From assembly GCA_016699105.1 (NCBI GenBank), contig CP064960.1, forward strand, positions 1,223,436 to 1,287,435: 64,000 bases of DNA. Reading direction: 5' to 3'. Position 1 is the stretch's first letter; every line of letters begins with the position of its first letter. The position numbers and the translations under genes were made by a program. The notes under the pieces are model-generated. The model was not told where the DNA came from. It worked only from the letters and a program-made list of their open reading frames with translations, and searched no databases. The stretch is from a bacterium (GTDB taxonomy: Bacteria; Patescibacteriota; Saccharimonadia; UBA4664). Below, piece after piece: positions 1 to 22,535 of this stretch.

Positions 1-56
1 AAACCGTCAGGCGTGTAATCATTATCACCTATTGTATCAGGCTACTGGCAATCAAA

Positions 57-731
57 ATGATTTGGGAGTACCATGCAGCTATGAATCGTAAACTCACTGG
101 CACAGCGTTAGTCGTTCTTGGTTTGGTCTTATTATTGGCTAATCTCAATTTGTGGGGTATGCAAAGTTTGCTCAGCGATTGGTGGCCGATCATTGTGATT
201 GTGACTGGTCTACTGATGTATCTCAACGATAGCCGTAATTATGTCTGGTCGTTCCTGGTAACTGGCATTGGCACAGTTTTACTCTTAAAAACACTTGATA
301 TCACACAAGTAGATGTGGGCGATCTAATAGTACCCGGTATAATTATTGCAGTTGGTACCTCAATTTTGTTGCGTAACCGCTCACACGCCGCACAGGTGGA
401 ATCAGGCAATGAAGACATTACCGCGGTTTTGTCTGGCGTAACCCACCGCAATACCAGCAACGATTATCAGGGGTGCGAAGTGACGGCCGTCATGGGTGGT
501 GTCGAACTTGATTTGAGCAAAGTAACGATTGCCAAAGAGGCGGTCGTAGATGTGTTTATTTTGATGGGCGGGTTAGAGCTGCGGGTGCCCGATAATGTCA
601 TCGTTAAATCAAAAGCTGTGTGCATCTTGGGTGGGGTCGAAGACAAGACCAATCCCGCCGATGCCACTAAATCACCAGTATTGTACCTCGACGGTACCGT
701 AATAATGGGTGGCGTCGAAATTAAGCGCTAG
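57..731 (+). CDS. LiaF-like / DUF2154-type membrane protein (cell-wall stress response protein-like)
   Basis: N-terminal TM helices, then a repeated GGVE(L/I) beta-rich C-terminal module typical of LiaF/DUF2154 family. Confidence 0.45.
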   Translation: MIWEYHAAMNRKLTGTALVVLGLVLLLANLNLWGMQSLLSDWWPIIVIVTGLLMYLNDSRNYVWSFLVTGIGTVLLLKTLDITQVDVGDLIVPGIIIAVGTSILLRNRSHAAQVESGNEDITAVLSGVTHRNTSNDYQGCEVTAVMGGVELDLSKVTIAKEAVVDVFILMGGLELRVPDNVIVKSKAVCILGGVEDKTNPADATKSPVLYLDGTVIMGGVEIKR

Positions 732-1432
732 GTCGCGGTCTGGCGAATATGATCAAGTGCAGCAGCGGCAGCGGCTTGTTGGCCGGCTTGTTTGCTCGAG
801 CCGGTTCCAGTACCAAGCTGCTTGTCACCCACAAAGGCACCGATGGAAAACGTCTTGTCGTGGTCTGGGCCGTCTTCGGACAATACCCGATAGGCCGGCG
901 TGAGCCCAAATTGATCTTGAGCCATTTCTTGAAAACGACTCTTAGCATCCAGCCAAGTGCCATCGGCTAAGATAGCATCCAAACGCGATATGACACTCTG
1001 GGCAATAAAATTACGTGCTGCCTCATAGCCTTGGTCCAAATAGATAGCGCCGATCAGAGCTTCTACAGCATTGGCGGAAATGAGGGCATGGGAACGGGCA
1101 TTGCCTTTGGCTTCACCACGGGAAAGCTTGAAAAACTGGGCAATTTCGAGATTGATCGCAACTTCTGCTAAAGACTCAGTTTTGACGAGTGCCGAGCGCC
1201 AATTGGTGAGATCACCTTCGGGATTTGGAAAATTGCGGTAGAGGTGGTCGGTGACAGCAAGTTCAAGCACAGCATCGCCCAGGAATTCCAGGCGTTCATT
1301 GTGTTCGAGTCCGAGACCTGGATGCTCATTGAGATACGAACGATGAATAAAGGCTCGTTCGAGGAGCGAAGGATCGGCAAAGTTGAGACCGAGTTTAGCT
1401 TGAAAGTCTTGTAGTGGCGTGACAGTGGTCAT
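728..1432 (-). CDS. rnc: ribonuclease III
   Basis: RNase III signature ERLEFLGDAVLEL plus C-terminal dsRBD; 4-nt overlap with upstream ORF. Confidence 0.9.
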   Translation of the reverse strand: MTTVTPLQDFQAKLGLNFADPSLLERAFIHRSYLNEHPGLGLEHNERLEFLGDAVLELAVTDHLYRNFPNPEGDLTNWRSALVKTESLAEVAINLEIAQFFKLSRGEAKGNARSHALISANAVEALIGAIYLDQGYEAARNFIAQSVISRLDAILADGTWLDAKSRFQEMAQDQFGLTPAYRVLSEDGPDHDKTFSIGAFVGDKQLGTGTGSSKQAGQQAAAAAALDHIRQTAT

Positions 1433-1440
1433 ATTAATTC

Positions 1441-2100
1441 TTATGATACTCCAGTTTGGGGTTTAGACGCAGCCGAAATGGGCGGCTGGGCGGCATCTAA
1501 CCGGGCGAGTGCCATCCGGAAAAGCCGCTCAGTATCGCGATACTCGATCAAACCCAAGGCTTTACTGGCATCGAACCAGCGCGCATCAACGATGCCTTCT
1601 GAGTTTTCGGCGACGATTTTGTCGGTATCACCCACAGCTTCCATGAGGAATACATGCGTGGTCATAAAGATCAACTTGCCTTCCCGGCGATAGAAGAAGT
1701 GTAGTTTATCGAGTTTTTCGTCCAATCGTAAGTGACTCAAGCCCGTTTCTTCGGCAACTTCACGAACAGCTGTTTGTTCGATGGATTCTCCGGCTTCGAC
1801 ATGCCCTTTGGGTATACTCCAGCGGCCTTGACGATCCTGGATCATCAAGATTTCGACGCGACTGCCGAGAATACGATAAACTACTCCACCAGCGGTATAC
1901 TCCCTGGTCGCACGGATGCGGCCGGGAGCTTTGGTAGCTTTATTCCCTGAACGGTGGAACGACTTACGCCGTGCTGGTTTCTTGCGGTCTTCGGATTTTG
2001 GTTGGGGTTGGGGTTCTGACTCTGGTTCATAGAAATCGCTTGATCGGTAAATGGTGCCCAAAACACCGTTGATAAACTTACTTGGAGTTTTCGCCACCAA
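1441..2100 (-). CDS. NUDIX hydrolase
   Basis: Nudix box [22 protein letters not shown]; basic low-complexity N-terminus, start uncertain. Confidence 0.75.
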
Positions 2101-2455
2101 ACGTCTTAGCCAATTCGACGGCCTCGTTGATAGCTACTTTGGGCGGAACTTCGCGTTTGTTAATGAGTTCATAAACGCCAATACGCAAGATAATCTTGTC
2201 GATTTTGGCGATCTGATCTACTGGCCATTCGGGCGCTGCCGGTCCGATAATGGCATCTATATCAGGTAAATGAGATGATACACCATCGACGATATCTTGA
2301 ACGAAGTTGGTGTCGTCTATATTTGACCGGAATTCGTCGAGATTGCGCTCGAGAATTGGGGATAGCTCTAAACCTGACGTCTCACCGCCTCGAAAGTCAT
2401 GCTCATAGAGCGTTTGCATGGCTACGATGCGGCCGAGGTGGCGATTGCTAGCCAC
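2078..2455 (-). CDS. nusB: transcription antitermination factor NusB
   Basis: NusB-like N-terminus [17 protein letters not shown], ~125 aa all-helical. Confidence 0.75.
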
Positions 2456-2606
2456 GTTTGACGAGTCCTAGCTCGACCGCTTTCTTGAGGCGGCGGGGTA
2501 CGAGTCCGCCAGCAGTGGTACGGACCAGCTGGACGGCTTTGAGAGCCAGGTGAGACCGCCGTTGGCCTTGGGCGCCGCGGGTAGTGCGTTTTTTGGGAAC
2601 TGCCAT
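2448..2606 (-). CDS. rpmF: 50S ribosomal protein L32
   Basis: Unlisted small ORF translating [23 protein letters not shown]..., the canonical L32 N-terminus; sits downstream of the YceD-like gene as in many bacteria. Confidence 0.65.
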
Positions 2607-2612
2607 GATAGT

Positions 2613-3032
2613 TTACCTTTCGTTAGAACTTGTGGCGTTGTCTGACCAATCCAAGCCGGGGCAATCAGGTCGGTCGAGTAACTTGATGGGCAGACTCAAC
2701 AGTATTTCCTGTTGAATTATGTCATCGAGGCTAATTTCGTCTCTGATAATCGGTTGTTCATCTTCGGTCGGCCTTTGGGCAAAGGTCTGCCGGATGTGCA
2801 CCCGCACTGGGTGGTCAAAAGGGCGCAAGCAACGGTGACATTCGAGCTTGATGATAGCATTGATGGTGCCATCGATAGATACCGCTTTGGCTGCCGTCTT
2901 GGTGATGGTTACCGTTCCGTCGACCGGCTCGGTTAACTCAACCTCGTCCAAATCAGGATTTTCGTCTGATATGGTAAAGGCCCGGCGATATCCGGTATCT
3001 TGGGCTAAAATGTCTCGTACATTGATGTGCAT
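2613..3032 (-). CDS. yceD: YceD/DUF177 family protein (large-subunit rRNA accumulation protein)
   Basis: CHRC...C metal-binding-like motifs; conserved position immediately upstream of rpmF. Confidence 0.7.
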   Translation of the reverse strand: MHINVRDILAQDTGYRRAFTISDENPDLDEVELTEPVDGTVTITKTAAKAVSIDGTINAIIKLECHRCLRPFDHPVRVHIRQTFAQRPTEDEQPIIRDEISLDDIIQQEILLSLPIKLLDRPDCPGLDWSDNATSSNER

Positions 3033-3096
3033 CGCACTCTTGGCGCAGATTATAACAGATCCGGAGGCTGTTTGGCAAACAGGCCGCCTGAGTTGA

Positions 3097-4268
3097 TTAA
3101 TCGGCGCCTACTCCTTCCAACTCTTGATTAAATGATTGGTCATAATTGCCACTGCCATTGGCATCCCAATAATGATGGGCTTCGTAGCGGATATTGGCGT
3201 CGGGGTCCTGGATCCAGGCATGAGGATGATTGGTACGCCAACGTGCCAAACTGGACCAATCGTAGCCGGATACAGCAATCGTTTTGTGAAAACCTGAAGC
3301 CCGCAAGGCCGAGACCACAGATTGACTAGCGGCTTCCCAAGTTTGCGCGGCGCTACCCACAGCCGAAGCTGGTAAGTCATGTGGTTCATTCATGATGCCG
3401 ACTCCGATCACGGCTGAATGATTACCGAGAGCTGATGCCAGCTTGATCCAGACATCAGCTAATTGGTCCGAAGTAAGTTGCTCGGTACCCAAAATAAATT
3501 CTCCCGCATCCGTGCGATAACGACCATAATTATGCAATCGAGCACGACTCGTAGATGGGCGGCGGCGGCAAAATCTAATTGTTGACGCACCGCTACTACT
3601 TCGGCATCTTTGAGCGGTCCACCCAATTCGGGTTGCAATCGTTCCCAGCGCAATGGTAGGCGGATCAGTGTCAATCCTCGGCTGGCTACGTAATTATAAC
3701 TGGAAGCGGGCTCATAGAAATAATCCCGTCCGGGCTCACCAGGAATTTGAGCAGTCAATTGGGTGCCAAATTCCATACCGGCGACATTGACTCCATATAA
3801 ACCCAGGTGAGTATGGTTTAAGGCCGTTTCAAGACTGTTGGCGGTAGCCCGAGCCGTATCAATGCCTTGGCCTTGACTCGATCCGTACAGCGTCATGGGA
3901 TAGTCACCCCAATGACTGCCAGCCGCCCAGCCAGTTACCCAGAGATCTTGTTGACGGGCACTTTGGAACCAAACGTCAGCCACCGCGTTCCAGCGACTTT
4001 GATCAGCACCTAGGGGCCAGCCGAGCTCACCGACAAAACCGGGGGCTTGATTTTCGGCTAGCCAACTTTTGAAGTCGTCGAGTTGCGTAACCGCCCGTTC
4101 TTCGACCGCGTTACTGACGCGAGGATATACCGGAAGCGGCAACCAACCATTGGTATCGATTTGACTTTGGAGCAGTACAGTACCACAAACGGCCACGGTG
4201 GCTCCGAATACCCCCAGGCTCAACCAGACGCGGGACGGCCAGAGTTGCGGCCCTTTAGGCCAAGTCAT
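3097..4268 (-). CDS. glycoside hydrolase family 5-like (cellulase family), secreted; split by a 1-nt frameshift near 3534-3537
   Basis: Signal-peptide-like N-terminus. GH5 motifs present: RLPLRWE, LDC(H)NYG (restored by adding one C), IMNEPHD (acid/base Glu), HHYWD, GELGWP (nucleophile-like). Motif order looks permuted. Confidence 0.5.
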
Positions 4269-5604
4269 GCAGAATCTCCGCCGCTACGACCCGGCCATCA
4301 CGCACCGCATAGTTTGTGCCACGATCCTCAGGAAATATTTGACAAAAGTTTGATAGATAAACGCCAGGCAAGGGTGTGCGGCGAGCAGGTATCTTGGATT
4401 CATAATCGATACCCACAATGTGCTGGGCATTGGCAAATTTGAATACATAGCTTTCCTTAACCCACTCGGTAGAAAATTTGGGAAACAACTTCGACAGTCC
4501 AGTAAGCCATTTATCCTTAATTTGATCCTCGGTCAGTTTCAACAATGGGCTATCGGCGGATACATAATCGCCAATGTAATACACGTAATGCCCCCCGATA
4601 TTGGCTGGTCCGACAAGCGCATCAAGACTTAAAAATACCAAGAATGGCGCATCAATGTCATGGATCTGGTGCCAATAGCGGTCGGTAATGGGCTGGTCGG
4701 TCGTAAAGACCATGACCACTGCCGACAGATACGTGATGTCCTGAAGCTGGCGGCTGTAAGGTGTAGTCATAGCCGGATGGTTGGATGCCAATCGTGCGAG
4801 TACACCGGACGGCAGGGCTGCGAGAATCGCATCATAAACTTTGGTTTTACCCCCAAGAACTACGGCCGGGTGACCATTGGTTTCGGTGATTGCCGACAAT
4901 TGCGTCTGCGTCTGAATAGTTACACCCAAGCGACGGAGCTCGGTTTCCAGTTGACGGACGACTACTTGGAATCCACCTTCGTAGTAACCGAGTCGTTCGG
5001 ATTGTTCACCTTTGATTTTGGACGTCTGGCGGACGTGAATACGAGTCCACAGCCAAGCCATGGTTACTTGGTCCCAATACTTGTCGAACTTACCAACGAG
5101 CAATGGTTTCCAGATGAGATCGGCTGCCCGGCGACCATTCCAGCGACACAGCCATTGGTAGGCAGTGATCTGGGTGAGTGGTTGCCAACGCTTGAGGGTC
5201 AATAACCTCAACCCAGTCAGCCCTGTGCGGAATCGGTCGAGTAAACTCAATGGTCCAAAGCTGAGCAAATCTTTGGCCGTCGTAAACGGATACAGTTTGC
5301 CTCGGTAAAAAGCACCAATGGAACTGGGATAGAAGTGCAATTTGTCGGCCACACCCAATTCTTGGCTGAGTTCAATCATGTAATTGTCGGTGGTATAGAG
5401 AAAATGATACGCTCTCTCCAGCGGTGTACCGTCGGCTAGTTGAAAGCCGGCAGCCAGCCCGCCCAAGGTATTGCCGGCTTCGTAGATAGTTACATGACAG
5501 CCGGCTTTGGCAAGTTCATAGGCAGCTGTCAAACCGGTGAAACCGCCCCCAATTATGGCTACTGAGTGGCGAGTAGTCTTATTCATTGGTACCGCCAGTC
5601 GCAA
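4255..5604 (-). CDS. FAD/NAD(P)-binding oxidoreductase (amine oxidase / phytoene desaturase / HemY superfamily)
   Basis: N-terminal Rossmann dinucleotide motif VAIIGGGFTGLTAAYELAKAG...E; ~450 aa; 4-codon overlap with the GH5-like gene. Confidence 0.55.
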   Translation of the reverse strand: MRLAVPMNKTTRHSVAIIGGGFTGLTAAYELAKAGCHVTIYEAGNTLGGLAAGFQLADGTPLERAYHFLYTTDNYMIELSQELGVADKLHFYPSSIGAFYRGKLYPFTTAKDLLSFGPLSLLDRFRTGLTGLRLLTLKRWQPLTQITAYQWLCRWNGRRAADLIWKPLLVGKFDKYWDQVTMAWLWTRIHVRQTSKIKGEQSERLGYYEGGFQVVVRQLETELRRLGVTIQTQTQLSAITETNGHPAVVLGGKTKVYDAILAALPSGVLARLASNHPAMTTPYSRQLQDITYLSAVVMVFTTDQPITDRYWHQIHDIDAPFLVFLSLDALVGPANIGGHYVYYIGDYVSADSPLLKLTEDQIKDKWLTGLSKLFPKFSTEWVKESYVFKFANAQHIVGIDYESKIPARRTPLPGVYLSNFCQIFPEDRGTNYAVRDGRVVAAEILHDLA

Positions 5605-5959
5605 AGGTCAAGCGCGAATTTAGGTAGAATTGCAGCACAAAGACAAATGGTAGTGTGCCAATTTTGGCCCAGGTTTGATTGACACCGCTGGCCACCAAGC
5701 CGGCTAAAATAGCCGTGCTGAGCACATAGCCGGCACCGCTGACACCGGCAAAACTGGCGAATCGTTGTATCAAGCGGTTGCTCGTTTGAAAATTGTATCG
5801 AGCATTGAGAGCAAAGCTATACAACATGGCCAAGCCGATAGAAAGGGCGTTGGCCAATACAATCGGTAGACCAACGATTGAACCGAGCAGCCAGAATAGG
5901 GTGACATCAATAACGACCGCTCCCCCACCGATGACAGCATACCAAGCTAGGCGTTTCAC
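5579..5959 (-). CDS. GtrA family membrane protein (polysaccharide synthesis/translocation)
   Basis: ~126 aa, 4 TM helices, GtrA-like signature; overlaps neighbouring genes in an operon. Confidence 0.7.
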   Translation of the reverse strand: MKRLAWYAVIGGGAVVIDVTLFWLLGSIVGLPIVLANALSIGLAMLYSFALNARYNFQTSNRLIQRFASFAGVSGAGYVLSTAILAGLVASGVNQTWAKIGTLPFVFVLQFYLNSRLTFATGGTNE

Positions 5960-7179
5960 TATTTGAGCTCCATTCTGAGGCTGGCAGGAAGGTGCCTCTG
6001 AAAATTATGCCACTGCCAATACCAAACCTGGTCTAAATAACTACCGCCCTCACCCCAGTATCCATCCACATGGTACTGGTCATGTATCTCATATGTGTAG
6101 AGGGTTTGCAATTGCTCTGAGTCGACAATCTGGTTGGTTTGACCATACATCAGCCAGGCGATGTCGGCTGGTGGCGAGGCAATGCGGGAGCGGAAATCGC
6201 GCAGCAGTGGTTCAATTTGAGTCAAGGTAGAGCGGGCTGTCTGAGCTCGGGTCTTGTCTGGTGTAGTGTATTCCTCAACCAGATGATAGACCAGTAAGAG
6301 ACTATCGTAGCCAAAGCTGTCAGCTGCCGGACCCATGACACTGCGAGCAGATGTGACCTCGCCGGCGGCACTCACCAATACCCAATCAGGTAACTGGTCA
6401 GCAGCCAGCAATGAATTGATGGTCGTATAATTGTCCCGTACCAATTCTGCCCAAGCATATTGCGGTACTTTGGTTGCTAGATAGGCGTAGGTGTCGGGAT
6501 CAAAATATCCTGGATTGACCAAGTGCGGATTGCGGCTTCCATCAGCTGACGAATCGACAAACCACCGCCCGCCCGCCTTGAAGACACACTTGGACCACCA
6601 ATCGGCAGTGTGGCGGGAAGCAGTTGAGGCATAGCCTTGACCTGGCCATTTTTCATCGGCTCGAAACAGCGCTGCGGCGGTGAGCTGATCAGCCGAGCAA
6701 ACATTATTGGCGTCGGCCAAACCGTAGACGCCACTGGCGTTTTTGGCCCATTTCCAGGACAACAAACTGTCATTTTGACGGTGGCGTAAATGGTCTTGAG
6801 TCCATTGCCACAGACCAGCAAACATAGCTTTGTCATTTTCGGCAACCGCGCGGTTGAGCGCCTGAGCCTGGGAATACGATGTCGTCAATCCCTGATTGTT
6901 GGGGTCGACTACTTGGCCATAACTAATAATGTAATGGTCTTTGAAATATGCCCAGGAATCTTGGAGGACGATCTCATTGCGACTCTTAACCCGATAAACT
7001 TGAGCCCAGTCGCCATTGGTCGAAATATAATTCGGTAAATCGATGAAACTTGAGGCACCAGTCGTAAAATCGGCGACCAGTTCGGAGTGATCAATATGAG
7101 CTTCATCTTGGGAGTGGTGCCGGCTTTGATCTGGCTTACGATTTCGTGCGTCAGGATCAAATATTCGATATTGCGCCAA
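5959..7179 (-). CDS. glycoside hydrolase family 8-like (endo-beta-1,4-glucanase, BcsZ-like) domain
   Basis: GH8-like blocks: WAYFKDHYIISYGQVVD...TTSYSQAQA (cf. TSEGQ), AGLWQWTQDHL, ADANNV..DQ. No signal peptide. N-terminus overlaps the upstream GT-C ORF by 270 nt in another frame, so a frameshift-masked fusion is possible. Confidence 0.55.
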   Translation of the reverse strand: MAQYRIFDPDARNRKPDQSRHHSQDEAHIDHSELVADFTTGASSFIDLPNYISTNGDWAQVYRVKSRNEIVLQDSWAYFKDHYIISYGQVVDPNNQGLTTSYSQAQALNRAVAENDKAMFAGLWQWTQDHLRHRQNDSLLSWKWAKNASGVYGLADANNVCSADQLTAAALFRADEKWPGQGYASTASRHTADWWSKCVFKAGGRWFVDSSADGSRNPHLVNPGYFDPDTYAYLATKVPQYAWAELVRDNYTTINSLLAADQLPDWVLVSAAGEVTSARSVMGPAADSFGYDSLLLVYHLVEEYTTPDKTRAQTARSTLTQIEPLLRDFRSRIASPPADIAWLMYGQTNQIVDSEQLQTLYTYEIHDQYHVDGYWGEGGSYLDQVWYWQWHNFQRHLPASLRMELK

Positions 7180-8549
7180 TCATCATCATAGGTCTGTCGG
7201 ACCTCGGGATCGTATTCGGCGGTAAAGAAATAGCTCACATGTTGGTACGCGCGCTGTTGCACAAAATATGGATACACGTAGTTGTCTGCGACAATGTGGG
7301 CTGAAGTGGGAATATGGGTCTGAACCCAATCGAGGGCTGCTTGCTGGTTGGAAGTTTCGGATACAGTGTATGGCTTGGCTCCTAATACCGACAGCGTGAG
7401 CAATAATAATATAAATCCGGCGGCCAAATGCACCCGCCTAAACCAACGCCAGCGACGAGGCCAGAGTTCTTGACCCAGCACGACCCAAAAACTAGCGATA
7501 GTAGCCGCCAGAAGCGGAATGTAGGGCACAATATACAGATCTATCACTATTTTGCCGCGAGCCAAAAACAATAAATAGAGCCAACAAGCAACAGCAAGTA
7601 CGATTAGGTAGGGATACCGACGACGACGCCAGATCGCCATGGCGGTCAAGCCGATCAAGCCGATAGCACCCCCAAGCAAGATAAATGGATCTTTGAGCGC
7701 CCACGTATTTAGGTTTAGCCGAAAGCTACTACGTGCTTGCCACGGCCAGGCAAAGTCGCCTCGGCCTAATTGCAGCTGAAAAGTTTCAACCATGCTGACA
7801 TGGAGCGGTTGGCCCGAGGCGTCGCGGGGAGCGGGTAGAAGTTCGCCCTTGAGGGCAGCATATAAGAAAAACACCAGTATCATGGCGCCAACGACGAACG
7901 TCCAATACAACAAAGCGTGCAACCGGTGGCCGGGATCGGCTTTTTTCCAGATGAGATACCAAAATGCTGGTAAGAAGAAGATGGCGTTGAGTTTGGTGAG
8001 GACAGCTATGCCCAAGAAGACGGCGCTCCAGATATAGTGATGCAATTGATGAGCTGGGCGGCTGGCCCACCACAAACTGAGCAGAACCCAAAAGGTCATG
8101 AGATTGTCGAGCAAAATGCGGCGCTGAAAATAGATGCCCAACGGCGACAAACTAAAAATTAAAACCGCACCAAAACCAGCGGCTTTGCTACCGTGAGTGA
8201 GTCGTTTGGTAACAGCGTAAAGTAATACACACGAACTCAAATGAATGATCAGCATAAACACTCGGCCACTCGTGACGAATGATCCAAACAGATTGTCGGT
8301 GCCACCAGTCAGCCACAACCAGGCACCAATGGTGATCCAACCAAGCGGCGCATGGTCATAGCGGTAGGTATAAACATCAAGTTGGCCAGTAGTTATAAAC
8401 TGCCATCCCCGTGATATGTAGGTGGCTTCATCGTTTTCGATGTATGGATAACCGGTCATATTCCAGCCATGGGCTAAACCGGCAACCACGAGCAATCCGA
8501 CAACAAGCCAAGTTTCGGGACGTTTGAGAAATTTGATGAGACGGTTCAT
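6909..8549 (-). CDS. GT-C fold glycosyltransferase, ArnT/PMT (GT39/GT83)-like polyprenol-phosphate-sugar-dependent transferase
   Basis: Start at MNRLIKFLKRP (abuts upstream stop). >10 TM helices. Loop-1 YIENDEATYISRGWQF DE-motif typical of PMT_2/ArnT family. C-terminal ~90 codons are ambiguous: they overlap the GH8 ORF. Confidence 0.6.
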   Translation of the reverse strand: MNRLIKFLKRPETWLVVGLLVVAGLAHGWNMTGYPYIENDEATYISRGWQFITTGQLDVYTYRYDHAPLGWITIGAWLWLTGGTDNLFGSFVTSGRVFMLIIHLSSCVLLYAVTKRLTHGSKAAGFGAVLIFSLSPLGIYFQRRILLDNLMTFWVLLSLWWASRPAHQLHHYIWSAVFLGIAVLTKLNAIFFLPAFWYLIWKKADPGHRLHALLYWTFVVGAMILVFFLYAALKGELLPAPRDASGQPLHVSMVETFQLQLGRGDFAWPWQARSSFRLNLNTWALKDPFILLGGAIGLIGLTAMAIWRRRRYPYLIVLAVACWLYLLFLARGKIVIDLYIVPYIPLLAATIASFWVVLGQELWPRRWRWFRRVHLAAGFILLLLTLSVLGAKPYTVSETSNQQAALDWVQTHIPTSAHIVADNYVYPYFVQQRAYQHVSYFFTAEYDPEVRQTYDDDWRNIEYLILTHEIVSQIKAGTTPKMKLILITPNWSPILRLVPQVSSIYRIIFRPMATGLKFIGLRVAMRSSSKIPGHISKTITLLVMAK

Positions 8550-9817
8550 AGTACACTCCGGTTCGGTGGTCGGTGGGCGCCGAGGTGGGCAGTTTTTTCC
8601 CAGCCGTGATGGCCCCGGTGATGTCGCCAGAGAGCGCGCCAAGCAGCTGCTGACAGTAACAATTGGTATGGTAAGTAGGCTAACAAAAAGCGGACGTAAT
8701 GATACCAACGTACCGGACGTTGTTGCTCTTGCCCAAACTCATACAAGCCAACAAGACTGACTAAAATACTCAAAATACTGAGCAATAATGGCATAAACGA
8801 CAGTAAGCTGACAAATATATTGGCCTGCAAATACAGCCCCAGCAAGAGGGTAAGCGGCGCCAATGCTAATACCCAAGCCATAAAGCTGGGGCTTTGCAAA
8901 ATATAGAGTACGAGGCCAATTTGTTTGCCGTAGGACAACCGACGCCAGTCACCTTTGGAGGTGATCTGAAGAAATCCTTGATTCCACCTGGTGCGCTGTT
9001 TGATGAATGCCGAGACGGTAGCGGGCGTTTCTTCGCGGGTAACATGACTGGCGTCGTACATAACACCAAAACGCTTGCCAGCCAGACTGAGGCGGATACC
9101 GATATCGGCGTCTTCGGTCAGGCAGCTCTCATCCCAGCCCCCAACTCCGAGTACATCGGCTTTGCGGAAAAAGACCGTATTACCGCCGAGTGGCACGATG
9201 CCAGCTCGGGCGTAATAATGCATCCGGGACTTAAACCAAAAGAAATATTCTAAAACATTGGCGGCACTAAACCAGCGGCTGTCAAAATTCATCAGTTGAA
9301 CTCCGCCCTGCAAGATATCGATAGCTTGGTTGTGATAAAGGGTGTTGGCAATATTTAAAATATCGGGGCTGACATCGTCTTCGGCGTCAAAAATGGTCAC
9401 CAGCTCATGACGCGCAGCTGCCAGCCCGATGTTCATAGCCCGGGCTTTGCCACTGGGTGGGTCGAATACAATCACCCGGGCGTTGGTAATGTGGTTTTGG
9501 GCGATGCTATCGCGAGCAGCAGTGATAGTATCTTGGTCATCAGGTGTACAGAGCACGATTAATTCGAATTTGTGAACCGGATAATTGATGGCCGCCAAAG
9601 CCTTAAGTGTTTCGCCGATGACCTGGTGTTCGTGGCGGCTGGGTAACAAAATACTGAAGCCAAAGAGCGGCGGACGGTACGTTTTGGGTGCACGAGCGTG
9701 GTCAATGCGAGCCGGATCAGCCCAGGCATACAACGTGAGATACAGATTGACGAAGCCGTGAAGCGTCAAAGCGAGGGCAAAGCCGGCTAGTAGCCATGTC
9801 TGAACATCACTTAGCAT
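8546..9817 (-). CDS. processive family-2 glycosyltransferase (cellulose/chitin/PNAG-synthase-like), integral membrane
   Basis: GT-A motifs DAEDD and DxD, plus processive-GT signature QRTRW (QxxRW). Flanking TM helices. Confidence 0.7.
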   Translation of the reverse strand: MLSDVQTWLLAGFALALTLHGFVNLYLTLYAWADPARIDHARAPKTYRPPLFGFSILLPSRHEHQVIGETLKALAAINYPVHKFELIVLCTPDDQDTITAARDSIAQNHITNARVIVFDPPSGKARAMNIGLAAARHELVTIFDAEDDVSPDILNIANTLYHNQAIDILQGGVQLMNFDSRWFSAANVLEYFFWFKSRMHYYARAGIVPLGGNTVFFRKADVLGVGGWDESCLTEDADIGIRLSLAGKRFGVMYDASHVTREETPATVSAFIKQRTRWNQGFLQITSKGDWRRLSYGKQIGLVLYILQSPSFMAWVLALAPLTLLLGLYLQANIFVSLLSFMPLLLSILSILVSLVGLYEFGQEQQRPVRWYHYVRFLLAYLPYQLLLSAAAWRALWRHHRGHHGWEKTAHLGAHRPPNRSVL

Positions 9818-10952
9818 GGTGACGAGAGTGATTCCAGATATACTTTACAGACAGGTAATAATTGGCAATAAAAGCCGTCACGATACCGATTAACTGAGCT
9901 AATACGAAGTGGAGACCGCTCCAAGTGAGGAGACTATACGTGCCGAGCATAAGCGTTTGCGACAGCAGTACGGCGCCTTCGTACTTGAAAAACCGAAAGA
10001 TGACATTGTGCCGTTTTGGCCGGTTGGATGCGGCTGTTTCCCGAAAGGTAAAATAACTATGTAGCAGAAAGTTCCAGATCACACTGATTTGGATAGCCAT
10101 AAACGAGATATACGGCAAGGTACTGCCAGTCAGATGCTGAAAATACCACAGGGCAGCCAAATTGACGGCAGTACCACTGGCACCAACTGCCATAAACCGC
10201 ATTGCTTGTTTGGCCGGTGAATCGGAGTTAAGGTGGTAGGCAATTTTCAAAAATTCCACGATATCAGACAACCGAGCCTTCGAACGTCCACTGGCGCGGC
10301 TACGAAAGGTAATCGGCACTTCGGTCACGTGGTACAGGCCATCCGTAAAAGCATTCGCCAGAAATATTTGGATACCATACCCGTTTGCCTGGACATCGTT
10401 GTAAGGTATTTCGACCAGAACCTGGCGCCGCATGGCTCGAAAATTGGTCGTTAACTCGTGTAAATCTGAACTGACACCACCGAGCCAATGTGCTAGGGCT
10501 GTGGCTAGGCGCGTTCGAACTATGAGGTGAAGTGGCCAATTCCCTGGGATCATTCCGCCTTCGATATATCGCGACCCGATGGCTACGTCGGCACCAGCTG
10601 ATATGGCGTCCATGAGAGCGGGAATATCTTGAGGACTATGTGAAAAATCGGCATCCATGGTGAGAATGACATCATGATCGTAGGTCAAAGCGGCGTCGAA
10701 CGCTCGCTGCAACGCCCGGCCGAGTCCATCTTTTTGACCGGTATGTAAGAAAACACGGCCCACATATAGACTGTCTGCCAGGCGTTTGACCACGCGGGCA
10801 GTACCATCAGGAGATGTGTCGTCCATGACCAATACGTCGATCTGCCAGTCAGTGAGCTGATCGCTGACAGCAAATATCTCGGCAAGGAGCGGTTCGACAT
10901 TCCTGGCTTCGTTGTAGGTAGGAAGGATTACGAGGGCTTTGGAATGAGGCAT
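9807..10952 (-). CDS. polyprenol-phosphate sugar synthase (GT2, DPM1/GtrB-like) fused to C-terminal GtrA-like membrane domain
   Basis: ILPTYNE, DDTSPDGT, DAD motifs of Dpm1/GtrB-type GT2. C-terminal 4-TM GtrA-like domain. Confidence 0.75.
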   Translation of the reverse strand: MPHSKALVILPTYNEARNVEPLLAEIFAVSDQLTDWQIDVLVMDDTSPDGTARVVKRLADSLYVGRVFLHTGQKDGLGRALQRAFDAALTYDHDVILTMDADFSHSPQDIPALMDAISAGADVAIGSRYIEGGMIPGNWPLHLIVRTRLATALAHWLGGVSSDLHELTTNFRAMRRQVLVEIPYNDVQANGYGIQIFLANAFTDGLYHVTEVPITFRSRASGRSKARLSDIVEFLKIAYHLNSDSPAKQAMRFMAVGASGTAVNLAALWYFQHLTGSTLPYISFMAIQISVIWNFLLHSYFTFRETAASNRPKRHNVIFRFFKYEGAVLLSQTLMLGTYSLLTWSGLHFVLAQLIGIVTAFIANYYLSVKYIWNHSRHHAK

Positions 10953-11010
10953 AGGGTACCGACTGTATTTACACTGCCAGATGTACCCAAGATATGCAAC
11001 CCGCTAGGCT

Positions 11011-11694
11011 CTAAAAAATTGTTAGAGAGGCGTGGCGCAGTAACCACCAGCCAAAGATGCCGCCTAAGATGCAACCAGTCACTAACTGGGCCGTGAGGAT
11101 AAGCCACCAATCGCGACGCGGCCATTGGCGGTTTTGCCAAGAAAAATCGAGTAGTACTAATCGAAAATCGGGGTCGGTGATTGAGGTAATTCCAAAAACC
11201 AGTCCGAAACCGGCGCCTCCAAGAATCGACATAATTATCAATCGGGCAGCGAATGTATCAAGCATGCCGCCAAACAACCACGTCAGGGCTGCGAAGCCGG
11301 CGCCAGCTACCAGAGACCACCGGATGACTTCCAGGCCGGAGTGGCGGGCGTAGGCCACTCTGAGGCGGCGCAGTTCTTGGCGAGCAGCGTTGATTTGGGC
11401 TTCTGACTGGACCTGCGGAGAAGTAGCAGCTGAAGCTGCCGATTGCACCGGCGGTGGCGCGTAATGTTGGGTGCGCTCCTGGTCAAATATAGCCCGCTTG
11501 TCGGCATCCCCAAGTACTCCATAGGCGTCGTTGAGTCGGTCCATGGCGTCGGCACTACCACCAGCGTCAGGATGGGCTTTTTTAGCCGCTTGACGGTAGG
11601 CTTGCTTGATAACAGCGACAGTCGCAGTCGGGGTGACTCCAAGTACCTGATAATAGTCGATAAAGGATTCGCTTGGTTGATAAGCTGATGCCAT
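11011..11694 (-). CDS. J-domain (DnaJ-like) membrane protein
   Basis: N-terminal J domain DYYQVLGV...HPD. C-terminal TM helices. Confidence 0.7.
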   Translation of the reverse strand: MASAYQPSESFIDYYQVLGVTPTATVAVIKQAYRQAAKKAHPDAGGSADAMDRLNDAYGVLGDADKRAIFDQERTQHYAPPPVQSAASAATSPQVQSEAQINAARQELRRLRVAYARHSGLEVIRWSLVAGAGFAALTWLFGGMLDTFAARLIIMSILGGAGFGLVFGITSITDPDFRLVLLDFSWQNRQWPRRDWWLILTAQLVTGCILGGIFGWWLLRHASLTIF

Positions 11695-11724
11695 TATTTA
11701 GCATTATAACCGTTTTGGTTAAAG

Positions 11725-14684
11725 TTAGGCTTTAACCACAAAGTTAACGATTTTGTGTGGCACTAATATCGTCTTAACTATCGTTTTACCCTCTAGATGC
11801 GGCACTACCTTAGGATCGACCAGAGCGGCGGCTTTGACTTCTTCGTCGGTCGCGTCGGCGGCTACAACCAGTTCACCGCGCAATTTGCCGTTGACCTGAA
11901 GGATGATGGTTACAATGTCGTCTTTGATGAGTTCGGGATCGTACTTCGGCCAAGGCGCTTGATGGACGCTCCCCTCTTGATGCAAGTTTTGGTGCCAGAC
12001 TTCTTCGGCCAAGTGGGGCACAAAGGGAGCCAACATGAGTACCAAAGTGCGGACAGTTCGCTCGCGCAAATCGTGGGCGTTAGCTTGGCGCAGTTTTTGC
12101 TTAACTTCGGTAGTGGTTAGATAATTGACCAACTCCATCATGGCTGACACACCAGTATTGAAATGCATATCCTCGATGTCGTGGTGCACTTTTTTGAGCG
12201 TCTTATGGACGATGCGGTCGGTGGCCACTGTAAATGCGCCTAAGTCGTTTTCATAGCCGACTGAACCTGACAGTGTTTCGACACCGTCAGTAAGGTCGTC
12301 AAGCCAGGTCCAGACCCGATAGACGAAGCGGGAGACGCCGTTGAGATGATCTTCTGACCAAGCTTTAACTTCGTCGAACGGACCCATAAACATTTCGTAT
12401 AAGCGGATGGTATCAGCACCATACTCGGCGATGACGCTGTCGGGGTTGATAACGTTGCCTTTAGATTTGCTCATTTTTGACCGTCGGGTCCCAGGATCAT
12501 GCCATGGGAGCGACGACGCGCATAGGGTTCACTGGTGGGTACGAGGCCTTCGTCATATAGGAATTTGTGCCAAAAGCGACTGTAGAGCAAATGGAGGGTA
12601 GTGTGCTCCATGCCACCGTTGTAGAGGTCGACAGGGGTCCAGTATTTGAGGTTGGCGGCTGATGCAAATTCGTTGTTATTGTGTGGGTCGGCGTAGCGCA
12701 GGAAGTACCAACTGGATCCGGCCCAATTGGGCATGGTGTCGGTTTCGCGCTGCGCGGGTCCCCCACACTTGGGACATTCGGTATTGACCCAGTCGGTGAT
12801 GGCCGCCAGGGGAGACTTCCCGGTATCAGTGGGCTCATAGTGATCCACTTTGGGTAGTTCGATGGGTAGTTGGTCAACCGGCACGGGCACCACACCATCT
12901 TTGGCGCAATGAACTACCGGAATCGGCTCGCCCCAATAATGTTGGCGACTAAAGATCCAGTCGCGCAGGCGGTACTTGGTGGCACCTTTGCCGGCGCCCT
13001 TATCAAACAGAGCTTTGACGATAGCGCGCTTGGCCTCGACGCCGGACAGACCGTTGAACTGGGTGGAGTTGATGAGCGGCCCATTGGCAGCAAAGCTTGT
13101 GCCTTGTGTAAAAAAGCGAAGCCACAATGCGTGCATTTCGTCTTGTACGTTGGTTAATGCTTCGGTGACAGGCAACCAGACCGGCTCGACGTTGTTGTGC
13201 TTTTCGCTACTCGTCAGCTTTAGTTCATTCCTATTATCGCTCTTCAATCTGAATAGGAAACCGGTAGTGACCGCTAACCGGTTGATCTTTTTTTCGGCAG
13301 AGAAATAATGATGATGAATCCGAAATGGAGCTTGTTCGACCAGTTCAAAGTCGGTATACCCGGTTTCTTCATTGACTTCGCGCCTGGCTGTGTCTAATGG
13401 CTGCTCACCCTGGTCTATGCCTCCACCAACCAGCAGATGTCCGCCCCAATTATCATGGCGGCCGTAGTGATCCATACTCAGAACCTTTTTACCTGATTGA
13501 TCGAGCAGCACAGCCACAATACTAGGGCGCTCCTCGGGTGCTTCAGGGCCATTGCCAGTATAAGGTTCAACCACATATGTGATGGGCAGATTAAAGGCTT
13601 TGGCAAATTCATAGTCGCGCTCGTCGTGGGCAGGTACGGCCATGATGGCGCCGGTGCCATATGAACCGAGTACGTAATCGGCGACCCACACTGGGATTTT
13701 CTCGCCAGTAAGCGGATGGATTGCCTTAATGCCGGTGTCGACGCCAGTTTTGACTTTGGATTCTTCTTGGCGCGATAGTTCGGAGGCCTTGAGGGCGGCG
13801 TCGATATAATCGGCGGCCTCTTGGTTGGCTTTCCAGCCGTTATCTTGCCAGGTTTTGGCGACTTCAGGCGAGACCACCAGGAAGGTGGCGCCAAAGAGTG
13901 TGTCGGGGCGGGTGGTGTAGACGGTGACTGTTGGTGTTGATTGTTCTTTAAGATTGAGACCTGCTAATTCCCAAGTAATTTCGGCACCTTCGGAACGGCC
14001 GATCCAATTGATCTGCTGGGTGGCGATGCGGTCGAGATAATCGACGGTCTTGAGATCTTCGGCCAGACGATCGGCGTAGGCGGTGATTTTGAGCATCCAC
14101 TGGGTGAGCATTTTCTTTTCGACTGGTGTGCCACAGCGCTCATGCTTACCGCCTTCGACTTCTTCGTTGGCAAGGCCGGTTTTACAAAATGGGCACCAGT
14201 TGATGGGCAGTTCTGCCTGATAGGCGAGGCCTTTTTCGAGGAGCTTCAAAAAAATCCATTGGGTCCATCTGTAATAGTTGGGATCTGACGTGCGGACTTC
14301 ACGGTCCCAATCGAAACTCAAACCCAAGGCGCGCATTTGGAGACGGAAGTTGGCGACGTTGCGCTCGGTTGCTACTTGGGGGGCAATCTTGTTTTTGATG
14401 GCGTAGTTTTCGGTTGGTAAGCCAAACTCGTCAAAACCCATGGGGTAGAGCACGTTGTATCCCTGCATACGCTTATGGCGAGCCATGATATCTAAGGCGG
14501 TATAACTCAGTACGTGGCCGACGTGCAGACCGTCGCCGCTGGGATACGGGAATTCAACGAGATAAAAATACTTCGGCCGGGTGTGGTCATCATCGCGAGC
14601 GGCATACAGCTTGGTGTCGGCCCAGACGCCCTGCCATTTGGATTCGATTGCTTTGGGATCGTATTTGTTCATAGTTGGCCTCAA
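11725..14684 (-). CDS. leuS: leucyl-tRNA synthetase (single gene split by 1-nt homopolymer frameshift at 12474-12478; carries an inserted NUDIX domain)
   Basis: HVGH (HIGH) motif, editing-domain TTRPDT, C-terminal fragment begins inside KMSKS (..GQK|MSKSKGN). Adding one A to the A5 run restores GQKMSKS. ~135-aa insert with Nudix box [24 protein letters not shown]. Confidence 0.9.
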
Positions 14685-14778
14685 TTATAGCGCGGGATCA
14701 GATAGACGGCTAGAGTATTTGACTTACATATGCTTAAATGATAGCTCCGATTGCACTGTACCTTGAGAGGACGGCATC

Positions 14779-14937
14779 ATGGATATCGATGACTTTCTGA
14801 TCGGATTATTCGGATTGATGATGATTTTTCTCGGACCTCTTCTGTTTGCCGTGGGATTATTTATTGGCGGAAGGGGTTTGGTAATAACTTTCATCGGCCT
14901 GCTTTGGTGGCTATGGTCATGGGGACAGCTGGACTAG
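14779..14937 (+). CDS. small hydrophobic membrane protein (52 aa)
   Basis: Unlisted ORF MDIDDFLIGLFGLMMIFLGPLLFAVGLFIGG...; two predicted TM helices. Speculative. Confidence 0.2.
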   Translation: MDIDDFLIGLFGLMMIFLGPLLFAVGLFIGGRGLVITFIGLLWWLWSWGQLD

Positions 14938-15266
14938 CGATTGTGCTTATTGGGCTCAGGCATAGCGAGACTGTCGGCCGTCGCGCCAATAACAGCTATT
15001 AACCAATCCCGGTCTTCCCACATGTCTGGAGGAACCCGCAAGTAGGGCTTTGATCCGGGATATGCTTGGCCGTCGAATGACTCATCGAGATACTGTCGGC
15101 TAACTGGCGTGATTTTAATGAACAGCGTGTCGTCACAAATGAAGGCTGTCGGTTTGCTATCAACGTATAGGCAATACTCTCCAAACATCCGGCGAGTACT
15201 TAGACGATCCGACATCACTGCAAGCTGCTCTACGAGAAAATCGATCGTGTCTTGAGATGTTGCCAT
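14934..15266 (-). CDS. TfoX/Sxy N-terminal domain protein
   Basis: MFGEYCLYVDSKPTAFICDDTLFIK matches TfoX_N consensus (MFGgyglY..gk.FalvcddqLylK). Confidence 0.5.
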   Translation of the reverse strand: MATSQDTIDFLVEQLAVMSDRLSTRRMFGEYCLYVDSKPTAFICDDTLFIKITPVSRQYLDESFDGQAYPGSKPYLRVPPDMWEDRDWLIAVIGATADSLAMPEPNKHNR

Positions 15267-15321
15267 GTAGCTAGTATACCAACGGCATCCGAGATCCTAT
15301 ATACCGAGAGGAAGTGGAACC

Positions 15322-15510
15322 ATGCGAGGATGGAGGCCGGAACATGCACCCACCAACGAAGAGTATGGACTGGCAAGCCTACCCAAGGATGAGGGTAATG
15401 AGGTACTAGGGGAGGTGAGAGAGGCGCTCGATACGGGAGACCTGGGTGCAGCTGAAGATGTGATGGCTCACCTGAGGTATCTTGGCCGGAGAGCCAAGAA
15501 AAAGAAGTAG
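15322..15510 (+). CDS. hypothetical small acidic protein with Lys-rich tail
   Basis: 62-aa ORF followed by a terminator hairpin; no recognisable domain. Confidence 0.25.
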   Translation: MRGWRPEHAPTNEEYGLASLPKDEGNEVLGEVREALDTGDLGAAEDVMAHLRYLGRRAKKKK

Positions 15511-15527
15511 GATATGTAACGCAACGT

Positions 15528-15567
15528 CCGTTTCCCGGTCTATTCGACTGGGAAACGGGCACTTTTA
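15528..15567 (+). terminator. rho-independent terminator (9-bp GC stem CCGTTTCCC/GGGAAACGG plus T-run)
   Basis: Perfect inverted repeat followed by CACTTTTAT. Confidence 0.5.
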
Positions 15568-15570
15568 TAC

Positions 15571-16344
15571 CTAAATCTCGCCGCGTAAATAGCGTTGACG
15601 TTCGGTAGCGTCAAAGCGCTCGATGGCGTAGCGGAGCATGGTGCGCGGCATGCGATGATAGTTGGCATTTAGGAATTGACGTAGGACCGATATATCGCGT
15701 TTACCGATTTCACGAAGCATCCATCCAACGGCTTTATGAATGAGATCATGTGGGTCTTGCATCAATTGCTCGGCCAGCCGTAACGATAAGTCAAACTGAC
15801 CGGCTTTGATGTAATAAAAAGTGGCGAGGACGGCGATGCGGCGTTCCCAGATGAGCTTGGAGGCTGCTAATTTTTCAAGTGCCGGGCGACCATCAGTTTG
15901 GGAGTCTAACCATGGCCCCACAATGTAAGGTGCTGAGGAATCAACGAGGTCCCAATTATTGATGTGCTCCGTGTGTCCCAGATAGATTTTATAAATGGCT
16001 TTGCGGGTTTCCGGAGTGCCGTTTTCATATTGATACACCAGTAACAACAGTGCCGTTAATCGCTCTTCATGAATTTTGCTGACTAATAATTTCTTGATTT
16101 CTGGTAACGAAATATGGCGGAATTTCTGGACGATTGAGCGTTGCAATGGGACGGTGACGCCAATGAAACGATCACCATCGGCATATTGCCCGGGTCCGGT
16201 CTTGAAGTAGCGTTGTGACAGTGCAGCCCGCACCGGGTCGGCAAATCGTTTGAGTGATTGCTGGACTGATTTGGCGGTTTGGAGTGGTAATAGGTTCACG
16301 CTTGCCAGCATAGCAGATTTAGCCGGTGTGACCGAGACCACCAC
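15571..16344 (-). CDS. DNA alkylation repair protein (AlkD/AlkC-like HEAT-repeat glycosylase family)
   Basis: Family-typical NNWDLVD and WMLREIG blocks; ~257 aa. Confidence 0.6.
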
Positions 16345-16753
16345 TGCCTCTGGAAGTTGAGTCTAAGCTGTCGACTGCTGTAATGTCGGCTACGACGTAT
16401 GTGGCCAGGACGGCTTGGGCGATACGGTCACCGTCTTGGACTGTGTAGTCTTGGCTCGACAAGTTGACCAATATAACCATGAGCTCACCGCGGTAATCGG
16501 CATCAATCGTGCCCGGAGCATTGAGCACCGTAATGCCATGTTTAGCCGCCAAGCCACTGCGAGGGCGAATCTGGAGTTCGTGGCCGGAGGGAATAGCACT
16601 GTAGAGACCGGTGGGTACGATAGCTCGCTCGAGCGGCGCCAATTTAACTGCCTCGTCGATATTGGCTGTCAAATCAAAACCGGCGGCACCAGCAGTTTGA
16701 TAGGCGGGTAACGGATGGCGGCTGCGATTGATGAGTGGGAGTTGTATAGACAT
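16319..16753 (-). CDS. dut: dUTP diphosphatase
   Basis: dUTPase motifs [20 protein letters not shown]. Real start MSIQLPL at 16753 overlaps the murF stop (TAATG). Confidence 0.85.
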
Positions 16754-18051
16754 TATTTGGCGTTGAATTGTTGTCTTTTGAGGCGCAGCCAGGCTGATGA
16801 CTGGCGGACGAGCTGGGTGGCGTCTGCGGTATCGGCCAGGAGCAGCTTGGTACACTCTTCGGCGAAAACACCGTTTTGAGAACCTTTGATCAGCACGATA
16901 TCGCCGTCGTGGATCATCGATTTGAGAAAGGCTCCCGCAGCATATGGCGAGTCGGCTGGTTTGTAGCGGGTGGGGTCGAGACCGGCTCCCACGGCGGCAG
17001 GTCCGAGCCAACGATTGGCATCGGTGCCGATAGTCACCAGGAAATCAACTGCAGCAGCGAGCTGGCCGGCTGATTCGTGATAACTCTGGCTGGTGGCGCC
17101 TAATTCGTTCATGGAGCCCAAAACAGCAATACGACGACCGCCCTCAGCAATATCCATCGATTTGAGAAGTTCAAGCGCTTCGGCAACGGCTTGCGGACTG
17201 GAATTGTAGGTGTCGTCGATGAGTAAGCTATTGTTGGTGCCGGGTAACGGATTGAGACGACCTGCCACTGGCTTGATGTCAGATATTCCTTTGGTTAATT
17301 GATGGACAGTCAATCCGAGAGCGTCGCCAACCGCCCAGGCTGCAACCAATGATTGCGCGGCTGTTGACCCAAGCAATGCTACCGGCTGATCACGTAGCAC
17401 GACGTGGCCGTGTTGCTTGATCGTAAGTTCCGAACCAGCGGTTTTGACAGTCGAGCGGAAGCTGTAACCGCGCTCGATATCTTGACCATAATACAGATGG
17501 TGGGCTAAGCCATTGATGTATTGACGGCGGTATTTGTCGGGGATTTCGTCGTGAGCGGCTATGAGGGTACCGCAATGAGCCGAAATGGATAATTCTTCGG
17601 CAGCCACCTGATCGAGTCCGTCAGGGAAATTGGCCATATGCTCGGGTGCAATGGCCGTAACTACACCAATATCGGGTGTCAGATAGTTCCAAAAGATGGC
17701 TAAATCACCGGAACGGTCGGTGCCCAATTCGAGAACCAATACATCATATTGATAATGGCGCGACCGCCACCAGGCTTGGATCATTTTGCCGAGCCAGGCG
17801 AATGGGTTGTAGAGCGACTGCGGCACCGACTGCTCAAAGACTGATAGCGGCAGACCAACTTCGGAATTGTAATTGCCCTGATGTACTAGTACCCGGTATT
17901 TTTGGCCAAGCACGGTGGCAATAGCCATTTTGGTCGATGTTTTACCCACCGAGCCCACGACAGCCACGACCTTGAGGTTATAGCGCTTGATCGTGCGAGC
18001 AGTAAGGTGTTCGAAATAACTGGCGATAAACCGCCGAAACTGAGCTTTCAT
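16753..18051 (-). CDS. murF: UDP-N-acetylmuramoyl-tripeptide--D-alanyl-D-alanine ligase
   Basis: Mur ligase P-loop [11 protein letters not shown] and Mur ligase middle/C-terminal domains. Confidence 0.85.
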
Positions 18052-18065
18052 AGCCTCATTGTAGT

Positions 18066-21917: not shown

Positions 21918-22526
21918 ATGGAGATGCTCATCCCGCTGTCCGGCACTGACCCTACGGCAACGGCACCAAATCTGGTGTATAGCGGACCGCAATACGATAC
22001 TATCTGTTGCTACGCTCAGACGGCCGGCCACAGAGAAGTGATGGGATACTCGTTTGCGGTACCTATGGAAGCGCCACGTGCATCACGTACTGAGTGGTTC
22101 CGGGTGCTACCGGATCTCATCATCCCTCGGCAGGTTGTGTCCGAAGCTGGCGTCGACGTCATGCCCGAAGGCGAAAGTGCCGTCGGACATATGGAAGATG
22201 CTCTTGATGAGCGATACGCCGAGGAATTCCCCGATGGCGTGACCCGAGTGATGTGGCATAGTCATATGGGAGGCCATGCAGGCTTTTCAGACAAAGACGT
22301 CAATACACATCACAACTTCGCGTTGTGGCCGTTCATGATGTTCGTGGTGGTCAACCGCTACGGTGAAGCGTCGGGCAACTTCGAGCAATACCAGCCCCGT
22401 CGCATGGGTGGTCCACTCAACTTGTGGGTAGCCCGGGAAGTCCCGGATGCACTAACCATCACAGCCACTATCAAGCAGCAATGCGTGATCAGGAAGTTAC
22501 CGGCGCGGAAGTCGCCTCGAGCCTAA
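21918..22526 (+). CDS. JAB/MPN (JAMM) metallopeptidase, deubiquitinase-like
   Basis: JAMM motif HSHMGGHAGFSDKD (H-x-H-x7-S-x2-D) with upstream Glu; ~200 aa. Confidence 0.7.
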   Translation: MEMLIPLSGTDPTATAPNLVYSGPQYDTICCYAQTAGHREVMGYSFAVPMEAPRASRTEWFRVLPDLIIPRQVVSEAGVDVMPEGESAVGHMEDALDERYAEEFPDGVTRVMWHSHMGGHAGFSDKDVNTHHNFALWPFMMFVVVNRYGEASGNFEQYQPRRMGGPLNLWVAREVPDALTITATIKQQCVIRKLPARKSPRA

Positions 22527-22535
22527 GGAGCTCTT

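Follow-up and report, generated by a model that had tools for sequence, protein, structure and literature searches.

The window analysed here is a stretch of 64,000 nucleotides (nt) of contig CP064960.1 (GenBank assembly GCA_016699105.1, positions 1,223,436 to 1,287,435) from a bacterium of the Patescibacteriota (Saccharimonadia, UBA4664). The minus strand carries all genes of the part of the window considered here, and all coordinates are window positions. Two open reading frames (ORFs) overlap in this part. The first, at 6909..8708 (minus strand; 599 amino acids (aa) as listed), matched the Pfam family PMT_2 with 40.4 bits against a cutoff of 26.1 and is referred to as the GT-C ORF. The second, at 5959..7179 (minus strand; 406 aa), matched the Pfam family Glyco_hydro_8 (PF01270) with 88.1 bits against a cutoff of 24 and is referred to as the glycoside hydrolase family 8 (GH8) ORF. 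An initial annotation, made from the sequence alone, had estimated an overlap of approximately 270 nt, which was confirmed as 271 nt shared in different frames, and had suggested that the two ORFs are one gene split by a one-base deletion. Fused homologues, intact relatives, and a sole indel upheld the core of this suggestion. The two ORFs very probably constitute one gene for an 863-aa GT-C plus GH8 membrane protein; the one-base deletion most likely stems from an error of the assembly or consensus, and the mechanism is inferred below. The parts of the gene were as follows.

5959..8549, minus strand: repaired GT-C–GH8 fusion gene, 863 aa; the homologue P0001 shows 97% identity across 100% of the repaired query, and relatives are intact
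8549..7092, minus strand: fusion residues 1–486, read in the GT-C frame
7091..7092, minus strand: the deletion site, between these two positions; the codon of fusion residue 487, Asp (GAT), lacks its G in the window
7089..5959, minus strand: fusion residues 488–863 and the stop codon, read in the GH8 frame
7092..7179, minus strand: overlap upstream of the deletion, the false head of the GH8 ORF and really coding in the GT-C frame; 6/7 substitutions synonymous in the GT-C frame and 1/7 in the GH8 frame
6909..7090, minus strand: overlap downstream of the deletion, the false tail of the GT-C ORF and an out-of-frame read-through; 0/6 substitutions synonymous in the GT-C frame and 5/6 in the GH8 frame

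We searched for homologues using a provisional fusion of the GT-C and GH8 ORFs as the query. More than 110 protein clusters, spanning Patescibacteria, Chloroflexota, and Actinomycetota, contained PF13231 and PF01270 in a single chain of 840–940 aa, with 95–100% of the query covered. The top match, P0001 (863 aa, 97% identity), read ...EYLILTHEILSQIKAGTTPKMKLIL-DHSELVADFTTGASSFIDL... across the junction, and its single-chain AlphaFold2 (AF2) model, built with 114 homologues, showed a pLDDT of 95.7 and a pTM of 0.91. Comparison with orthologs, as the initial annotation had proposed, showed that the relatives encode the 863-aa protein in a single frame, and an intact 863-aa PMT_2 plus GH8 gene was called in the same operon in six independent assemblies.

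The contig encoding P0001 (L001) was aligned to window positions 1..18546 with 98.48% identity and seven one-base indels. The sole indel within the fusion gene was one G absent from TTGGATC between window positions 7092 and 7091, where the window reads CTCATATTG-ATCACT and all relatives read CTCATATTGGATCACT. The window follows the GT-C frame through KMKLIL and the GH8 frame from HSELVADF on, and the junction peptide is ...THEIVSQIKAGTTPKMKLIL-D-HSELVADF... (...KMKLIL-D-HSELVADF... in the relatives). Without this G, the GT-C ORF runs on into a nonsense tail and the GH8 ORF acquires a nonsense head. When the identical protein of the upstream glycosyltransferase family 2 (GT2) gene was used for a look-up, 21 contigs from independent samples were returned, seven of which cover the deletion site; GG was present at the site in all seven of these independent short-read assemblies, which are 98.0–99.4% identical to the window. 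In the alignment with contig L082 (99.44% identical), the missing G was the only indel across 7.4 kb.

The lesion had initially been placed approximately 51 nt upstream of this site, at CACGAAATC (7149..7141), with a repair of A3 to A4 and a junction of ..THE-NRKPDQSRHH... This repair was ruled out, as L001 has the same AAA in frame and the peptide NRKPDQSRHH matches no homologue. A junction after SQIKAG was also rejected; the actual one falls 12 codons later.

The listed GT-C ORF opens at TTG 8708. Translation most likely begins at ATG 8549. This codon and the stop codon of the upstream GT2 gene overlap as ATGA; a start here agrees with all relatives and yields 863 aa instead of the approximately 1000 aa expected initially. 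For the GH8 ORF, ATG 7179 had been named as the sole possible start. The first codon at this position is TTG, immediately 3' of TGA 7182..7180, and the claim stood in that the further in-frame start-type codon falls within the GH8 fold. The lack of a signal peptide in the GH8 ORF was also evident: its N-terminus is hydrophilic, and the top 19-residue hydropathy of the fused protein beyond residue 470 was 0.91.

We then sorted the substitutions between the window and L001 into synonymous and nonsynonymous in each frame. The frame with the synonymous pattern switched exactly at the deletion site, as listed above, and this pattern indicated that the GT-C tail and the GH8 head are noncoding in those frames. 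The repaired gene as a whole contained 61 synonymous and 12 nonsynonymous substitutions (44:8 before the deletion site and 17:4 after), and both halves of the real gene are under purifying selection. The same counts bear on the possibility that the ORFs are two genuine overlapping genes or are joined by a programmed −1 ribosomal frameshift. The overlap of 271 nt and the usable TTG at 7179 are in keeping with such an arrangement, but we regard it as hardly credible: the overlap is without selection in two frames, the protein is encoded in one frame in every relative, and a stand-alone GH8 protein would have no signal peptide. The programmed frameshift was ruled out, with no slippery heptamer at CTCATATTGATC and no need of a shift in the relatives.

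Single-base deletions were frequent in the window. Six of the seven indels relative to L001 (18.5 kb) were deletions of this type, three of them in G or A runs. The GH5 gene at the end of the operon was broken at 3537 by a one-base deletion (CGACTTG to CGATTG), and a MurA-like gene was broken at 18333 by a deletion in a G run, whereas nusB contained a +1/−1 indel pair 98 nt apart and regained its frame. The indel sites further included 15562, 2082, and 1983 in addition to 18333, one being an intergenic change of A5 to A4. The deletion sites outside homopolymers were GATC at 7091 and TCGA at 3537, for which a methylation motif may be the explanation. Other interrupted genes, and an intact paralogue of one of them, were as follows.

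11725..14684, minus strand: LeuRS-like gene with A6 to A5 at 12473 in the L001 alignment, listed as ORFs 12471..14684 and 11725..12474
29511..31698, minus strand: MMPL-family transporter in three ORFs of different frames, which implies at least two more frameshifts
23815..25950, plus strand: intact MMPL paralogue, 711 aa

The intact relative of the LeuRS-like gene (L001 3877..6825; 982 aa) contains a NUDIX match (PF00293) inside the synthetase, an unusual insertion. An AAA_14/DUF4143 ATPase at 27329..28426 (minus strand) starts at profile position 61 of 129 and is missing its N-terminus, which may reflect another frameshift.

The initial remark that the same pattern of single-base deletions occurs elsewhere in this assembly was thus correct for the LeuRS, MurA-like, and GH5 genes. 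Because a cell could hardly carry all these broken genes, the deletion in the fusion gene is, in all likelihood, an assembly or consensus error. Two points weigh against this call: the deletion lies in a GG dinucleotide rather than in a long homopolymer, and the site was judged from assembled contigs, which leaves room for a recent private mutation. A real and very recent mutation in one strain would truncate the GT-C protein with a nonsense tail and leave the GH8 part unexpressed or unexported as a young pseudogene, and host-dependent small genomes do lose envelope genes. We give this explanation only a slim chance in view of the GG in all seven relatives, the purifying selection on both sides of the site, and the equivalent one-base deletions in the LeuRS and MurA-like genes, which are hardly dispensable. 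The frequency of one-base deletions means that gene calls in this assembly need frameshift-aware handling.

The domains of the repaired protein were as follows.

7377..8549, minus strand: GT-C membrane module, residues 1–391, approximately 11 helices (Pfam PMT_2, hydropathy, DSSP helices, and Foldseek)
8427..8432, minus strand: codons of Asp40-Glu41 in loop 1, invariant in 114/114 homologues
6991..7376, minus strand: small soluble α/β domain, residues 392 to approximately 520, containing the deletion site (AF2 secondary structure)
5962..6990, minus strand: GH8-like (α/α)6 domain, residues approximately 521–863 (PF01270, PDB alignments, and Foldseek)
6874..6876, minus strand: codon of Tyr559, which takes the place of the catalytic acid (alignments to 5czl, 5gy3, 1wzz, and 1cem, all ungapped and of high confidence)

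The membrane helices of the GT-C module, approximately 11 by hydropathy and by AF2/DSSP, lie within residues 11–391. Loop 1 contains the motif N-D40-E41-(G/A)-T-Y44, of which Y44, like D40 and E41, is invariant in all 114 homologues. The Pfam family PMT scored slightly under its cutoff on the GT-C ORF (21.5 against 22.7). Foldseek matched the membrane part to AglB, ArnT, STT3, Pmt4, and PglB (E = 3e-8 to 2e-6, probability 1.0). A sequence-profile search of the PDB matched only GH8 chains and no GT-C structure, and the kinship with GT-C structures came to light only when folds were compared. The positively charged loops KKADPGHR, RRRR, and PRRWRWFRR alternate as expected for the cytoplasmic side, which would put loop 1 on the outer side of the cell together with the 470 C-terminal residues; both soluble domains are therefore predicted to be extracytoplasmic. 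The small domain of residues 392 to approximately 520 corresponds to the C-terminal end of GT-C-only relatives (approximately 500–540 aa, without GH8).

The fold of the GH8 domain is closest to that of BcsZ-type endoglucanases. The PDB profile search gave E-values down to 1e-47, and Foldseek gave target-normalised TM-scores of 0.77–0.79 to BcsZ, CMCax, and 4q2b. The residue numbers of CelA used here (Glu95, Asp152, and Asp278) were mapped by chain index on 1cem. Asp749 aligned to the catalytic base (CelA Asp278 / BcsZ Asp243) and Asp621 was conserved, whereas Ser619 occupied the position equivalent to CelA Asp152. The acid position was occupied by a residue other than Glu in 49 of the 50 full-length homologues of at least 42% identity (P0001–P0053), a group comprising Saccharibacteria, Demequina, Microcella, and Marisediminicola, and the residues found there were Y, A, S, T, M, L, Q, G, V, I, N, H, and D. 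E-D-D-D was retained by the majority of the remoter homologues (other Patescibacteria and Chloroflexota).

Because the catalytic Glu has been lost, the GH8 domain in the clade of the window is probably a non-hydrolytic glycan binder. An alternative is that the domain is an active BcsZ-like endoglucanase that uses another acid residue, which would make the protein a bifunctional transferase-hydrolase. The conserved fold, Asp749, and Asp621, the purifying selection on the domain, and the retention of E-D-D-D in the distant half of the family all speak for activity. Against it, Tyr at the acid position belongs to a column that varies across the clade, unlike an essential catalytic residue, and the equivalent of CelA Asp152 has been lost as well. 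Moreover, Glu55 and Asp243 of BcsZ have been named as catalytic, and the variants Glu55Ala and Asp243Ala served as inactive mutants (PMC11379886). We consider hydrolysis by the domain in this clade rather unlikely. A GH5 gene was present in 3/10 of the loci lacking Glu versus 1/39 of the loci containing it, a tie between GH5 presence and Glu loss that is suggestive only, given the small counts and the lack of phylogenetic independence among the loci.

The fusion gene occupies the third place in a series of six tightly overlapping genes. The other five were as follows.

9807..10952, minus strand: fusion of a GT2 enzyme with a GtrA membrane domain, candidate for a polyprenyl-phosphate-sugar synthase (Pfam Glycos_transf_2 and GtrA_DPMS_TM)
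8546..9817, minus strand: processive-type membrane GT2 enzyme, 423 aa, Glyco_tranf_2_3, with the motifs FDAEDD, TED, and QRTRW (Pfam and motifs)
5579..5959, minus strand: small membrane protein of the GtrA family, a candidate flippase or synthase partner (PF04138, 69 bits)
4255..5604, minus strand: FAD-dependent oxidoreductase with an amine-oxidase/phytoene-desaturase fold (NCBIfam PRK07233 'hypothetical protein', 407 bits)
3097..4268, minus strand: GH5 endo-β-1,4-glucanase-like gene, last in the operon and broken at 3537 (E = 1e-43 to the endoglucanase structures 4ee9 and 4lx4)

The start of the GtrA gene shares one base with the stop codon of the fusion gene, and the gene order is the same in the relatives. 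The GT2-GtrA protein showed below-cutoff NCBIfam similarity to AglJ, dolichyl-P-hexose transferase, ArnC, and PpgS, and the best matches of the processive-type GT2 were weak (BcsA in the PDB with E = 4e-7, and PgaC). The intact relative of the GH5 gene encodes 390 aa. The FAD oxidoreductase resembles protoporphyrinogen oxidase and phytoene desaturase and travels with GtrA in several Patescibacteria loci.

In 76 of 80 related loci, all drawn from species-representative genomes, the gene immediately preceding the GT-C gene on the same strand encoded a homologue of the processive GT2, and the GT2-GtrA gene was present in about half of the loci. The pair of GT2 and GT-C genes without GH8, adjacent and on the same strand, occurred in Streptomyces, Streptacidiphilus, Actinomadura, Solirubrobacterales, and Anaerolineae (loci L043, L045, L048, L055, L057, and L059–L078), and in the Streptomyces loci the GT2-GtrA gene was located downstream of the pair. 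Elsewhere in the window, a ThiF/E1-like protein (22536..23309, plus strand; PF00899) directly follows an ORF with the motif HSHMGGH...S..D (pair at 21918..23309); this ORF is JAB/MPN-like by eye and had no Pfam match. The two may form a ubiquitin-like conjugation or defence pair.

These contexts point to the following mechanism. The upstream GT2 (QRTRW, TED) would polymerise and export a β-linked chain, probably similar to β-1,4-glucan, while a polyprenyl-phosphate sugar would be synthesised and brought to the outer face of the membrane by the GT2-GtrA protein together with the stand-alone GtrA protein. The GT-C module would then attach the lipid-linked sugar to the exported chain, which the GH8-like domain, without its catalytic Glu in this clade, would hold as an acceptor-binding module; any trimming would be left to the GH5 endoglucanase of the operon. 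Support for a polyprenyl-phosphate donor of the GT-C module is contextual only, namely the GT2-GtrA and GtrA genes in the same operon. Two further findings count against this mechanism: the NCBIfam scores of the GT2 enzymes were far below every family cutoff, and about half of the family keeps the full GH8 catalytic set, which suggests that hydrolysis matters in at least part of it.

More broadly, and tentatively, we propose that GT2 plus GT-C, with GH8 in many lineages, is a conserved and translationally coupled envelope-glycan machine of monoderm Patescibacteria, Chloroflexota, and Actinomycetota. In the clade of Saccharibacteria and Actinomycetota, an ancestral fused BcsZ-like cellulase would have become a non-catalytic acceptor holder, with GH5 taking over the trimming.

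The frameshift itself is without biological interest. Fusions of this design are already widespread in public databases, so that the finding amounts largely to an artefact of the assembly, and the window copy is an ordinary family member minus one base. Of modest interest are two leads, namely the conservation of the GT2/GT-C(-GH8) module and the loss of the GH8 acid across the clade. The strict GT2 linkage, the invariant GT-C motif, and the clade-bounded loss of the GH8 acid together provide a concrete and testable entry to the question of how a β-glucan-like surface polymer is built or decorated in ultra-small Saccharibacteria and some Actinomycetota. Culturable carriers of the fusion are found in Demequina, Marisediminicola, and Microcella.

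Finally, we compared the fusion with known proteins and systems. Database fusions of PMT_2 and Glyco_hydro_8 (Marisediminicola senii, Demequina spp., and Microcella daejeonensis) have the same domain order, approximately 860–890 aa, and the same neighbours, and their only difference of substance from the window copy is the one-base deletion in the latter. The fusion is 45–54% identical to these named members, compared with 97% to P0001. Such fusions are recorded under automatic names in NCBI, UniRef, and JGI, for example 'glycosyl hydrolase family 8' and, at JGI, 'endo-1,4-beta-D-glucanase Y/4-amino-4-deoxy-L-arabinose transferase-like glycosyltransferase'. A search of the literature for the PMT_2 plus GH8 architecture found no paper on the family and no published function. 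The architecture had initially been described as unusual; with over 110 database clusters, several of them already named, it is not rare, although it is experimentally uncharacterised.

BcsZ, CMCax, and CelA share with the GH8 part of the fusion the (α/α)6 fold, the catalytic base Asp, and a gene position beside a membrane GT2 synthase. The differences are that BcsZ Glu55 / CelA Glu95 is replaced by Tyr and the CelA Asp152 equivalent by Ser in the window, and that BcsZ-type enzymes are free and secreted, whereas the GH8 domain of the window is tethered to a GT-C enzyme. Its NCBIfam BcsZ score was 84 against a cutoff of 299. A Bcs-type BcsA with PilZ was not found in the operon: the 423-aa GT2 had no PilZ match, and its NCBIfam CelA score was 40 against a cutoff of 699. 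All six operon genes were assigned to proteins other than BcsB, for which no dedicated search was made.

Genes for a membrane-linked GT-A C55-P-sugar synthase, a GtrA-type protein, and a multi-spanning GT-C transferase, encoded together, define multi-component transmembrane glycosylation systems (PMC8035078). GtrABC, CsbB/GtcA/YfhO, and GtlA/GtcA/GtlB each comprise these three components, and all three domain types are also present in the window operon. Unlike those systems, the window operon additionally contains a strictly linked processive-type GT2 and glucanase-like modules, and its GT-C enzyme shows no sequence kinship with YfhO or GtrC-type enzymes. PpgS/Rv3632/Rv3779 is presumably another system of a similar kind.

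The proposed role of the GH8-like domain has a parallel in EmbC, an arabinosyltransferase of the GT-C type in which an extracytoplasmic, lectin-like C-terminal module binds the glycan acceptor (PMC3044687). The parallel with the C-terminal acceptor-binding domain of EmbC and EmbB is one of functional analogy only, as that domain resembles a carbohydrate-binding module, whereas the fusion carries a putative (α/α)6 pseudo-glycosidase and belongs to a different GT-C subfamily.

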